Origin: Minisyncoccota bacterium
GTDB taxonomy: Bacteria; Patescibacteriota; Minisyncoccia; Phycocordibacterales; UBA2100
Direction: 5' to 3'
NCBI GenBank assembly: GCA_035949275.1
Contig: DASZII010000005.1
Span: 1-27,351, forward strand
DNA: 27,351 nucleotides
Shown here: positions 5,310 through 14,836 of the stretch, one piece after another
Numbering within the stretch: the first letter of the stretch is position 1
Layout of the letters: each line of letters opens with the position of its first letter
Program-made: the position numbers and the translations under genes
Notes under the pieces: model-generated
Seen by the model: only the letters and a program-made list of their open reading frames with translations
Told to the model about the DNA's origin: nothing
Database searches by the model: none

Positions 5310-5356
5310 TTGATAAGTATACCCCCACACCAATACATTGGAGTGGGGGTATACAG

Positions 5357-7141: not shown

Positions 7142-8316
7142 ATGGCTTTGATGGCGTCCGCGATCGCGCCCGTGATGACCGAGTCGGAGCCGGAGATCGA
7201 TCCGAACATCTTTTCACGTTTGAGAAAATCGCGCATGAGCTCGAGCCCGGCACGCTCGTTCGGCCCACCGCGCCGTACGAACACCTTTATTCTTTGTTCA
7301 CGGATCTTCGGAGCGAATTCTGAAAGCGCATCGATGATGCCGGCGAATGTCTTTTGAATATCGGTAAAGTTCGCGACGCCGCCCGCGATGACGAGTGCTT
7401 TTCGGCCCGAGGCCGGTCCGCCTCGGGCGGATTTCGGCCTCGCACGCAACATGAGTTGTATGATCTCTTTGGCGTACAAATACGTTTCCTCACGCGACGG
7501 GCCGCCGCTGTATTCGCCATAATTCCCTATCAACTTGCCCGCTCCTTCGAGTTCCGCTTCATCGGCGATCACAATGGAGCCGCCACCGCCCGACAAAAGA
7601 AAAAATAATGAACCGTTCGGGTTAACGACGGATAATTTGAGAGAGGCAGGAGTCGTTTTCTGCAGGTCCTCGACCCGCGTTTCCGCCGGATGCTTCGTTT
7701 TTGACTTTACAATGTCTCGTTCGCTCCATGAATCGACGAAGAATTCGCCGGCACTGTCGACGAGACAAGCGGCGTCCAGCAAATGCGCTTGTCCTTTTTG
7801 AATGACGAACGGGTTGATCTCGAGGAACGCGAAAAAATTCTTATGGAATGCTTCAAGAAGCTGTCGCAAAAACTCCTGCGGGATCTTTGTGGCCCGCGCG
7901 ACCTTCACAATGTCGGGATCGCTCCCGACAATGTACGTTTTTACTTTTTCCGGATGCGCCTCGATATCAATCCCGCCCTCCCCCGCATGCAATATGCGGA
8001 TGCCCTCGCGCACGCGCTCGAGCGAGAGGTACTGCTCTTCCTCCGGCCTATGCAGCACGAGCGGCTCAAGTAAAAATTGTGAGAAGCCCTTCTTCTTCCA
8101 TTCAGAGAACTTACGCGTGGCTTGTGCGGGCGATACGCCGACCGCAACAAGTCCTTGTTTAAAGCGCTTTTTTATACCTTGGTCGACCTTGACGACCAAG
8201 GTACCCTTCGAAGCTTTAGCGGAGTAGGGCTGCCCTGCACGAACCGACACTCCTTTATAAGCGTCGCCGAGTAATATCTTCTTCGCCCGATATTCGCTGA
8301 TCTTGACCCGGGCCAT
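7138..8316 (-). CDS. aclB: ATP-citrate lyase beta subunit (ATP-grasp and citrate-binding domains)
   Basis: KISEYRAK, VVKVDQGIKKRFKQGLV, FLEINP, SGGGGS, NYGEYSGGP, GGVANFTD and VRRGGPN motifs. ATGA overlap with aclA. Confidence 0.93.
   Translation of the reverse strand: MARVKISEYRAKKILLGDAYKGVSVRAGQPYSAKASKGTLVVKVDQGIKKRFKQGLVAVGVSPAQATRKFSEWKKKGFSQFLLEPLVLHRPEEEQYLSLERVREGIRILHAGEGGIDIEAHPEKVKTYIVGSDPDIVKVARATKIPQEFLRQLLEAFHKNFFAFLEINPFVIQKGQAHLLDAACLVDSAGEFFVDSWSERDIVKSKTKHPAETRVEDLQKTTPASLKLSVVNPNGSLFFLLSGGGGSIVIADEAELEGAGKLIGNYGEYSGGPSREETYLYAKEIIQLMLRARPKSARGGPASGRKALVIAGGVANFTDIQKTFAGIIDALSEFAPKIREQRIKVFVRRGGPNERAGLELMRDFLKREKMFGSISGSDSVITGAIADAIKAI
7402..7431. repeat. 30-bp palindromic element in frame in aclB (encodes SARGGPASGR)
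   Basis: Perfect 9-bp arms GCCCGAGGC/GCCTCGGGC. Built from two 15-nt hairpin units. Length is a multiple of 3. Confidence 0.6.
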
Positions 8317-13231: not shown

Positions 13232-14836
13232 TTATTTCTTAGGCGGAATCCAATGCACTTCGATAAGCCCAAGATGTCCGAGACGGGCGCGAATTGCGCC
13301 TGATTTACGGCCGAAGCGTTTGGCGATGTCCGCATTCGAGGCGTTCTCGGCGAACATCTTTTTGAGCGTTTCGTCGTCCTCGTTGCTCCATTTTCTGCCG
13401 ACGTTCGGATACTTCTCGCGCAGTGTTTCCAACTTGCTTTTCACAGGCTGCGCGACCTCCATCTGACGCGGTTCGTGCGCACCGATCGCCCGCAGGAAAT
13501 TCTTTTCGAGTTTCTCTTTTTCGCTCTGCGGCAGTGCGGCGAACTTTTTCCGTGCGGCATCGGAGTAACCCCGGAAATGTCGGTCGGCCGCGGCGACTTT
13601 CGGATGTAATTGCAGCGCGCGCTCATTGAAACCTTCGAGATGAAGCCCTTCCAACGTCCGCACGCGCGAGATCGCCACGTACCCCTGCCCGAACTCGAAC
13701 GCCTGCGAAAGGTCGATGACCGCCGCGTCGAGCGACATTCCCTGCGACTTGTGCACGGTGATCGCCCAAGCGAGCCGGAGCGGTATCTGCGTGATCTTCG
13801 CGAGCAATTTGTTGCCGTCCTGGATGGCCCAATCGACCGGCTCGACGGTGATCGTAGTGTTCTTCGTCTTTATGATCGGCGCTCCGAGCGGATTGAACCC
13901 GATGACCTCGCCAAGCGTGCCGTTCACGTAGCCCATATCGAAATTGTTGCGCGTGAAGAGGACTTTTGCTCCCTCTTTGAGTTCGAGCACTTCGGGCGAA
14001 AGGCATTCTGCTTTCAACGATTCGACGAGCGCTCTGGGTCCGCGCGCGATCATGTGAAAGACATGCGATGGATTTTGTATCTCCTTGAGCGACTCTTGAT
14101 TGATGCGATCGACGTTCTCGTTGTGCGGATACAGGCGCGTAGCAACGCTTTGTTTTGAAAGAACGCCGGCGCGCGACCGCAGCGTAGTCCGATGTGTACC
14201 GCTCAACGTGCCCCGGCGGAATGCGCCGAGCAGTTCCAAAAAATCGCCGTCTTCCTGCCGATGTTGCTCATTGAGGTAACAAATAATGGGATTTGCCTCT
14301 TTCCACGTGGACGACTCGAACGCGAATCCCGACGCTTCGGTCGAGACCCCGACCTCCCGGGAGCGTCGGGGCTTCGTTCTGCTTGTTGATATCGGCGGTA
14401 GCTGAAAAAAATCGCCGACGAATACGACCTGCAGTCCCCCGAAGGGCTCCTCTTCGCGCATCGGTCGGCGACGCAGCGTCCGCAGCACACGGTCGACGCT
14501 CGCGAGCGTTTGCGCGTCGAGCATGGATATCTCGTCGATAATGAGCACCTTCGCCTCGATGATCCGCCGCGCCGTTTTCTCACGGCTTTGAATGAGCTCG
14601 ATGTCGTGGTCGCTTACATTCGATTTGATTCCGATGCCGCTCCACGAGTGGATGGTCATGCCGTTGATGTGCGTCGCCGCGATGCCGGTCGAAGCCGTCA
14701 CCGCCGGCTCGACGCCGCGCTCTCGCAACCATTGCACGTATCTGTTTATCGTATGCGTCTTCCCGCTCCCGGGCTCGCCGGTCAGAAATACATTGAGCCC
14801 TGTTCTCAAAATAGCGAAAGCTTCATCCTGCGTCAT
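13232..14836 (-). CDS. PIF1-family (SF1B) DNA helicase with small C-terminal HTH-like domain
   Basis: GEPGSGKT, TIHSWSGIG, IIDEISM, GDFFQLPP, RLAWAITVHKSQGMSLD and GQGYVAISR motifs. Confidence 0.92.
   Translation of the reverse strand: MTQDEAFAILRTGLNVFLTGEPGSGKTHTINRYVQWLRERGVEPAVTASTGIAATHINGMTIHSWSGIGIKSNVSDHDIELIQSREKTARRIIEAKVLIIDEISMLDAQTLASVDRVLRTLRRRPMREEEPFGGLQVVFVGDFFQLPPISTSRTKPRRSREVGVSTEASGFAFESSTWKEANPIICYLNEQHRQEDGDFLELLGAFRRGTLSGTHRTTLRSRAGVLSKQSVATRLYPHNENVDRINQESLKEIQNPSHVFHMIARGPRALVESLKAECLSPEVLELKEGAKVLFTRNNFDMGYVNGTLGEVIGFNPLGAPIIKTKNTTITVEPVDWAIQDGNKLLAKITQIPLRLAWAITVHKSQGMSLDAAVIDLSQAFEFGQGYVAISRVRTLEGLHLEGFNERALQLHPKVAAADRHFRGYSDAARKKFAALPQSEKEKLEKNFLRAIGAHEPRQMEVAQPVKSKLETLREKYPNVGRKWSNEDDETLKKMFAENASNADIAKRFGRKSGAIRARLGHLGLIEVHWIPPKK
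14328..14370. repeat. Branched palindromic element in frame in the helicase (within KPRRSREVGVSTEASG)
   Basis: Outer arms CCCGACGCT/AGCGTCGGG (9 bp), inner hairpin GGTCG/CGACC, and palindrome TCCCGGGA. Confidence 0.65.

Follow-up and report, generated by a model that had tools for sequence, protein, structure and literature searches.

The DNA considered here (the window) is a stretch of 27,351 nucleotides, contig DASZII010000005.1 of assembly GCA_035949275.1, belonging to a Candidatus Kaiserbacteria genome of 731 kb in 80 contigs (86% complete, 57% GC; G000 in the following). On its minus strand it carries a gene for a PIF1-like helicase and, inside this gene, a palindromic sequence of 43 nt (the 43-mer) that a preliminary description had singled out for its three layers of base pairing. 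We followed up this sequence in its own genome and in related genomes, and found that it belongs to a dispersed repeat family, to which we gave the name R1. The features of the locus are the following:

13232..14836, minus strand: PIF1-like helicase gene, host of the insertion; 534 aa, open reading frame (ORF) intact; PF05970 (E 3e-34) and Pif1_2B
14393..14416, minus strand: codons of GDFFQLPP (residues 141-148), helicase motif upstream of the insert; alignment columns invariant
14327..14371, minus strand: 45-nt insertion unit, 15 codons, P156-G170, PRRSREVGVSTEASG; from filled versus empty orthologues
14348..14370, minus strand: hairpin A, in which CCCGAC and GTCGGG enclose a variable loop of 11 nt; covariation among copies at pairs 1-15 and 6-10
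14354..14363, no strand: palindrome CTCCCGGGAG, the variable loop of hairpin A; other copies have a third hairpin unit there, of the TCCGAC...GTCGGA type
14328..14345, minus strand: hairpin B, CTCGAC, conserved loop CGAAGC, GTCGGG, with one T-G mismatch here; pair 18-35 covaries
14312..14326, minus strand: codons of FAFES (residues 171-175), conserved strand directly after the insert

The helicase gene and its palindromic insert

The 43-mer, at 14328-14370, agrees letter by letter with the preliminary description. In its outer stem CCCGACGCT pairs with AGCGTCGGG over 9 bp without a mismatch, GGTCG pairs with CGACC in an inner hairpin of 5 bp, and the 8-bp palindrome TCCCGGGA is present as well, although the palindrome is in fact longer and extends to 10 bp. 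The predicted folding energy is -23.1 kcal/mol, which corresponds to z = -1.5 against dinucleotide shuffles (12 of 200 shuffles were equally stable) and to a z-score of only -0.5 when a context of 121 nt is folded; the GC-rich window contains 52 inverted repeats with arms of at least 9 nt lying within 40 nt. Taken alone, the fold is not beyond chance; the recurrence of the element, described in the next section, is far beyond it.

The insert was correctly located inside the helicase, after GDFFQLPP, where it encodes residues 156-170. The 45-nt unit consists of one pyrimidine, the 43-nt element and one purine; it is flanked by the AAG codon of Lys155 and the TTC of Phe171, and its boundaries are those of the R1 units found in DnaK, LigA and UvrA of relatives. 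It had also been proposed that the encoded peptide interrupts a normally short linker, and this proved right: the linker has 22 residues in the window helicase and 8 in most orthologues from genome assemblies and in 38 of 63 metagenomic ones. In the comparison of orthologues the segment is absent, the closest of them (81% identity) reading GDFFQLPP-ISKKEEAK-FAFES, and no other orthologue has R1 at this site except for a degenerate R1-like insert in the relative G006. From these alignments the 43-mer is read as an inserted palindromic element, and the earlier opinion that protein coding alone would hardly explain the pairing layers is supported by the recurrence of the element and by the empty orthologues.

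The G006 helicase (L020, 53% identity) deserves a separate mention, as its degenerate insert of 15 codons, PRLLQGVRAPTSASG, lies at the same codon boundary as that of the window and precedes the Phe of FSY/FAF; either a hot spot was struck here independently, or an old insertion has since disappeared elsewhere.

The helicase allele with the element was found, with zero differences, in contigs from three separate soil metagenomes, which cover the element with both flanks or with one flank, and in four soil runs no contigs or reads skipping the element and no alternative joints were seen. The identity of the allele in separate metagenomes argues that the element is not an assembly artefact: the helicase copy is real and appears fixed.

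The loop itself is evidently permissive, because orthologues carry various other insertions in the same linker, reaching 23 residues in distant orthologues and unrelated to R1. In other Kaiserbacteria helicases (L073, L072, L078 and L076) we observed unrelated palindromic insertions in the linker after GDFFQLPP, among them one with an 11-bp stem, ATGTTCGACCT-ACG-AGGTCGAACAT, in L073. Going by these sequences, the linker was repeatedly the target of different hairpin families. An AlphaFold2 model of the helicase, computed with 28 orthologues, reached a mean predicted local distance difference test (pLDDT) score of 78.6; residues 150-168, preceded by a confident strand (136-140) and followed by the FAFES region, have a pLDDT below 50 and no secondary structure. 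The insert is most likely translated as a disordered surface loop of 15 residues that the helicase tolerates.

The R1 repeat family

A covariance model was built from four copies of G000 and, together with pattern and nhmmer scans, identified four R1 sites in this genome with E-values from 2.6e-14 to 6e-10, the next best match having E = 0.3. Copies elsewhere in the genome, which the preliminary description had considered worth searching for, were therefore found in gyrB and in two spacers:

Window 14328-14370, minus strand: in frame in the helicase gene
C34:2406-2443 (first search match spanned 2403-2446): spacer preceding rpmG
C58:8986-9022: spacer between a CYTH-like gene and the dihydrofolate reductase (DHFR) gene, divergently transcribed
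C72:12574-12628: in frame in GyrB, encoding PTPEGVGVPTSGKSRSVG directly before QRYKGLGEMN

Besides these, a degenerate copy was noticed at C28:3225-3264 and a half copy at C33:7559-7579. No Rfam family matched the element, at E-values up to 1, in the five copy-bearing loci searched.

Among the 101 genomes of the genus, the R1 model matches 33, G000 included (32 of 100 relatives), and does not match the other 68; with the covariance model no R1 was found in G008, the closest relative of G000. The relatives hold well over 100 sites in total, and the richest genomes of the genus are G051, with up to 37 strand-hits, and G011, with 31. Concerning the rest of the class, R1 occurs in 22 of 150 genomes, over 20 other genera. 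Loci fetched from other genera, with a GC content of 39-43%, bear practically the same R1 sequence of 77% GC, and a module of 27 nt is identical at dozens of unrelated loci and genomes. R1 is apparently selfish hairpin DNA, spread patchily over many Patescibacteria. In three genomes we noted copies with common flanks (aaaagagtgt ... atgtat or gtgtat), at L197, L063 and possibly L048; R1 lies downstream of the 3' end of the 16S rRNA in two of them, by about 150 nt in L197 and by about 1.1 kb in L063, in what looks like a conserved spacer site.

In the relatives, R1 was found in frame in genes for the following proteins:

UvrB: G048
LigA: G067, G084 and G011, at a site identical in all three
DnaK: G051
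CarB: G090
UvrA: G064
SecA: G060 and G073
Exonuclease III: G115 and G090
GyrB: G001 and G082

Where the relatives have R1 in DnaK, LigA, UvrB, UvrA and CarB, the G000 sequence is uninterrupted. The inserts in DnaK, LigA, UvrA and CarB are exact blocks of 14-24 codons placed after AAG or AAA, while that of UvrB follows CAG and corresponds to a gap of 19 codons. No target-site duplication was present at six filled/empty gene pairs (UvrB being less cleanly aligned), nor at sites in tRNA fragments, where the intact tRNA served as the empty sequence. A miniature inverted-repeat transposable element (MITE) of the DDE type was considered and rejected, as R1 has inverted termini but no target-site duplication.

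The anatomy of the element, its flanks and its reading frame were studied in 60 copies, and covariation in 41 distinct sequences. In the common orientation R1 reads CCCGACGC, a variable stretch, and the conserved 27-nt module GGTCGGGRYCCCGACC-GA-AGCGTCGGG; the variable stretch measures 2-18 nt and is itself frequently a small hairpin (TCCGAC...GTCGGA type). The whole element is 37-55 nt long and is made of two, sometimes three, tandem hairpin units of 17-18 nt, with the stem CCCGAC/GTCGGG, a variable first loop and a second loop conserved as CGAAGC; hairpin B is the best conserved module of the family. Since the window copy stands in the common orientation on the minus strand, it is sense with respect to the helicase.

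Across the 41 sequences position 1 changes with position 15 and position 18 with position 35. A model of tandem hairpins has 6 compensated and 8 broken cells, a nested model 2 compensated and 38 broken. These counts favour two adjacent hairpins with the same 6-bp stem as the conserved structure. The pairings of the branched, three-layered fold put forward at the outset do exist, then, but the nested fold as a conserved structure was discarded; because both units share one stem sequence, the nested palindrome is possible as a mutually exclusive alternative pairing. What had been taken for the third layer is in fact the first hairpin's variable loop, a place where other copies have a full third hairpin unit.

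In each of the 19 copies lying within long ORFs the arm-to-arm length is 1 mod 3, and together with its two terminal bases the copy amounts to whole codons (0 mod 3); the 41 other copies split 16/15/10 by length mod 3. About 14 of the 19 represent independent sites, and with respect to the ORF 13 are sense and 6 antisense. That every one of these copies keeps the frame strongly indicates that intragenic copies are translated and not removed. The bases flanking the element have the following consensus:

Position -3: A in 48/60
Position -2: G or A in 56/60
Position -1: pyrimidine (Y) in 59/60
Position +1: purine (R) in 58/60
Position +3: T in 41/60

In the filled/empty pairs the Y and R are part of the insert and the A-G/A part of the target. 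These flanks show that R1 prefers target sites ending in A-G/A.

GIY-YIG nuclease cassettes at tRNA genes

A profile of small GIY-YIG proteins was used to scan 79 R1 loci, and at three of them an ORF of 86 aa encoding such a protein starts 6-20 nt after the R1 copy. The nuclease matches PF01541 (E 7e-13) and, weakly, UPF0213 proteins in the PDB (1zg2, E 2e-4). Its genes were found in 11 related genomes, at these loci:

L044:1551-1808: 86-aa GIY-YIG gene
L064:1228-1488, minus strand: 86-aa GIY-YIG gene
L058, L252, L253 and L279-L284: further 86-aa GIY-YIG genes

At 9 of the 11 nuclease loci R1 lies within about 100 nt of the nuclease ORF. The layout of the cassette is constant, also in other families of the class, and was seen with tRNA-Thr, Asn, Val, Ile and Arg. 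It starts with a -10-like box followed by the first 10 (or 22) nt of the tRNA, ending in TAG; then come Y, R1 and R, the next few tRNA bases (CTCAG...) and the nuclease ORF, whose last codons with the TAG stop are at the same time nt 1-10 of the intact tRNA gene downstream. Before many tRNA genes there is a layout without the ORF, that is a tRNA fragment, R1, about 20 nt and the intact tRNA, and in G108 the versions with and without the ORF stand side by side.

Solo R1 copies were also observed 22-37 nt upstream of intact tRNA genes in the relatives G011, G069, G051, G090 and G048 (L207, L209, L052, L208, L189, L191, L214, L215 and L201). Each is embedded in a duplicate of roughly the first 15-20 nt of the tRNA; the duplicate has a -10-like box just upstream and is interrupted mostly at TAG^CTCAG, within the D stem, or after CTCAG in L214 and L215. 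These loci look like ORF-less derivatives of the GIY-YIG cassette.

Close homologues of the nuclease are confined to genomes possessing R1. In the genus, at an identity of at least 65%, they were found in 5 of 33 R1-positive and in none of 68 R1-negative genomes; in the sample of the class, at no less than 120 bits, in 6 of 22 and in none of 128, respectively. Five genomes free of R1 have paralogues of only 28-38% identity to the 86-aa nuclease. The subfamily was not found in G000, which is 86% complete and whose own small GIY-YIG protein (C47:20407-20625) is only 39% identical to it, and no R1 hexamers flank the 16 small GIY-YIG genes of G000, G011, G051, G069 and G090. Only one GIY-YIG subfamily is linked to R1 in its gene neighbourhoods. 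Other small GIY-YIG subfamilies were seen within or next to tRNA genes in G069 and G011 (L237, L230, L241 and L246), with different hairpins of their own; in L246 the order is tRNA D-arm, long GC hairpin, GIY-YIG ORF.

Origin of the helicase copy and comparison with known elements

We consider it highly probable that R1 is a small mobile DNA repeat and the 43-mer one solo copy of it, inserted in frame in the helicase, where its loop is tolerated. One copy would have entered the gene directly behind the Lys AAG codon, without target-site duplication, in the surface loop that leads from the motif GDFFQLPP to the FAFES strand; as the inserted unit measures 45 nt, the frame was kept. We infer that R1 owes its multiplication, present or past, to an enzyme that recognises hairpins and acts on single-stranded DNA. 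For this role the 86-aa GIY-YIG nuclease is our preferred candidate, though a tentative one to which we would give somewhat less than an even chance; it would pair with R1 as the Ssn nucleases discussed below do with their NTS/SRM hairpins. The helicase copy would be a non-autonomous derivative that has been kept thanks to its frame and its position in a tolerant loop, and it is probably immobile now, since the nuclease gene was not found in the incomplete genome of G000.

With slightly more reserve, it can be imagined that the 86-aa GIY-YIG gene and R1 together make up a mobile element of Patescibacteria of a type not described before, namely a cassette that enters tRNA genes and sheds non-autonomous hairpins. 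The hairpin-plus-nuclease cassette would enter between G10 and C11 (TAG^CTCA), the tRNA would be kept whole through duplication of its first 10-25 nt, and its U8-A9-G10 would be borrowed as the stop codon of the nuclease. The shed double hairpin would land after A-G/A in single-stranded DNA all over the genome, essential genes included, and copies landing in frame would give rise to new surface loops in proteins throughout an entire class of bacteria.

Several points weigh against these proposals. As regards the insertion, the reads of the four soil runs showed no polymorphism for the presence or absence of the helicase copy, no helicase orthologue above about 81% identity was found in GTDB genomes or JGI metagenomes, the exact boundaries of the insert rest on comparisons with diverged orthologues, and the translation of the helicase loop is inferred from the frame rule. 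The nearly identical sequence of R1 throughout the class and its covarying stems could also mean a function for the host. As regards the nuclease, 44 of the 55 R1-positive genomes are without the subfamily, including G000 and the copy-rich G011 and G051; 8 of the 11 nuclease genomes were reached via R1 loci or genomes rich in R1, so that the ascertainment is biased; and the genomes entering the co-occurrence counts are related to one another. R1 could, moreover, be a frequent passenger in the duplicated tRNA fragment created by the nuclease cassette.

A mobile R1 might also have been moved in trans by a Y1 (HUH) tyrosine transposase, as a REP/REPIN-like element (REP, repetitive extragenic palindromic) or as a derivative of IS200/IS605 similar to palindrome-associated transposable elements (PATE-like). 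Elements of the IS200/IS605 type transpose as single strands by 'peel and paste' (see PMC11893778 and PMC3116915) and no target duplication is expected from them, so that the insertion of R1 after a short preferred sequence without target duplication would fit; R1 is a pair of hairpins with identical stems, and PF01797 (Y1_Tnp) has matches in 94 of the 101 genomes of the genus, up to 16 in each. However, the presence of Y1_Tnp does not separate R1-positive from R1-negative genomes (94% vs 33%), G000 and G086 have R1 and no Y1_Tnp match, no R1 copy lies near any of four Y1_Tnp loci, among the coordinates listed R1 and Y1 are never adjacent, and the conserved GTAG head was not seen next to R1. 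We regard this origin as unlikely. It should be noted that the PF01797 (Y1 transposase/RAYT-like) ORFs of this small-genome genus measure about 230 aa.

Even less credit can be given to R1 as a structural signal selected by the host, such as a protein-binding site, a hairpin for RNA processing or stability, or a signal for replication or recombination, in which case the helicase copy would serve as an mRNA hairpin pacing translation or as a useful loop. The near constancy of the sequence over class-level divergence, AT-rich genomes included, the covariation of the stems and the many spacer copies in tRNA gene leaders and in the 16S-23S spacer would be expected of such a signal; but R1 stands in both orientations to transcription, as the 13 sense and 6 antisense ORF copies show, its copies lie in unrelated genes and in non-homologous loops, it is patchy even among close species and missing from the closest relative, and it has neither an Rfam family nor a terminator-like T run. 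A chance palindrome, or the growth of a loop in a variable linker of this lineage, with the other copies being GC-rich look-alikes, hardly deserves belief. The modest fold z-score, the many inverted repeats of the window and the variable linker length could be read in its favour, but the covariance-model matches are full-length with E-values reaching 1e-14, the 27-nt module recurs without change at dozens of unrelated places, and two thirds of the equally GC-rich congeners have no match; the look-alike reading is refuted by those matches and by the patchy distribution in the genus. Nor do we see practically any room for an artefact of sequencing or assembly, such as a chimera formed at a repeat. 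Short-read assemblies can break or be wrongly joined at palindromes, and one contig of run X3 does stop right after the element, yet the three separate soil metagenomes showed neither differences nor alternative joints.

The closest parallel is offered by the Rickettsia palindromic elements (RPEs), which are dispersed palindromic repeats found in spacers and in frame in unrelated housekeeping genes, where their sites agree with the fold of the protein (Ogata et al. 2000, as summarised in PMC10969869). Going by that account, R1 is likewise a dispersed palindromic family of a small-genome bacterium, with copies in spacers and in frame in genes, and it too has entered unrelated genes without breaking them, including those for the helicase, GyrB, DnaK, LigA, UvrA, UvrB, CarB, SecA and ExoIII. 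It differs in its length of 37-55 nt, against about 100-150 nt given there for RPEs, and in its composition of 17-18-nt hairpin units; further differences are the host phylum (Candidatus Kaiserbacteria/Paceibacteria instead of Rickettsia), the A-G/A target preference, the absence of target duplication and, in some genomes, the link with a GIY-YIG cassette. R1 works like an RPE but is not a member of that family, being set apart by size, unit structure, host and target rule. To our knowledge, no mobilising enzyme has been described for RPEs.

In the Ssn nucleases, a small single-domain GIY-YIG gene is flanked by GC-rich hairpin repeats, NTS/SRM, dispersed in the genome (Chenal et al. 2025, PMC11893778). 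R1 is similar in that a small GIY-YIG gene stands next to a short GC-rich dispersed hairpin and the nuclease is confined to repeat-bearing genomes, a likeness which holds in relatives only (the 9 of 11 loci), as G000 has no such gene. None of the 60 R1 copies matches the published SRM motif on either strand, whereas an NTS example does (PMC11893778). The R1 cassette is fused to the 5' ends of tRNA genes with a duplicated fragment, and R1 copies are, to judge from the frame, often translated inside genes; neither feature is mentioned in PMC11893778, where the word tRNA does not appear at all. REP sequences and REPINs are short palindromic doublets that form two small hairpins or one long hairpin, and are non-autonomous and patchy (Bertels and Rainey 2011, PMC3116915; PMC3337134); REPINs are essentially extragenic and flank a RAYT gene present as a single copy, and their GTAG head is conserved (PMC3116915; PMC3337134). 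R1 shares with them the doublet units with alternative two-hairpin or long-hairpin folds, the non-autonomous state and the patchy occurrence, but is often intragenic, is without the GTAG head and has no link to Y1 transposase genes. The consensus before the R1 stem is A, G/A, Y, and GTAG appears only where the flank is a tRNA D-arm. R1 resembles both the Ssn/SRM and the REPIN systems in design but departs from defining features of each.

Short GC-rich double hairpins are also present in fungal mitochondria, as GC clusters (for instance in yeast var1) and, reportedly from work by Paquin and co-workers in 2000, as the double-hairpin elements of Allomyces. These are very short, lie in AT-richer genomes and insert both in spacers and in frame in coding regions, so that by description they are similar to R1, with the difference that they inhabit organelle genomes; we know of no sequence relationship with R1 and of no nuclease partner. 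Phage T4 SegB is a free-standing GIY-YIG homing endonuclease in a tRNA gene cluster. It recalls the 86-aa nuclease in that it adjoins tRNA genes and that tRNA sequence is duplicated locally, but Seg proteins are larger, have DNA-binding domains and spread by homing between phage genomes, and as far as we know they do not seed a dispersed hairpin repeat.

In the literature searched we found no published description of palindromic, MITE-like or in-frame insertion elements of the R1 kind in bacteria of the candidate phyla radiation (CPR). For this family the present analysis adds a class-wide range, the frame rule, the absence of target duplication, the A-G/A target, the covariation of tandem hairpins and the exclusive co-occurrence with one GIY-YIG subfamily. 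These observations imply that selfish hairpin DNA is still tolerated, and has become fixed, within essential genes of streamlined CPR/Patescibacteria genomes measuring 0.6-1 Mb, among them the genes for helicase, gyrase, DnaK, ligase, SecA and UvrABC. R1 would be a ready source of new protein loops, and also of alignment and annotation artefacts in these lineages, and the frame rule with the empty/filled pairs amounts to a natural experiment on loops that tolerate 13-24 extra residues. The nuclease in tRNA genes is a testable candidate for how such repeats spread, a question that bears on RPEs too; if it cuts single-stranded hairpin DNA in a site-specific manner, it would represent a new specificity among Ssn-type enzymes.

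Other palindromic sequences were noticed in the window. A GC-rich double hairpin with arms TCGGCCCGAGGC / GCCTCGGGCGGA at 7402-7431, within an ORF of the aclB region, matches the R1 model weakly (17 bits, E 0.035) and looks like a different palindromic family. At 7907-7934 a palindrome in a coding region, with 12-bp arms (ACAATGTCGGGA-TCGC-TCCCGACAATGT), includes both stem hexamers of R1, GTCGGG and CCCGAC, arranged as one hairpin unit, which may be due to chance or may be a solo unit. The longest inverted repeat of the window is at 5317-5354, with arms of 18 nt (GTATACCCCCACACCAAT / ATTGGAGTGGGGGTATAC) that are 94% complementary and 2 nt apart.

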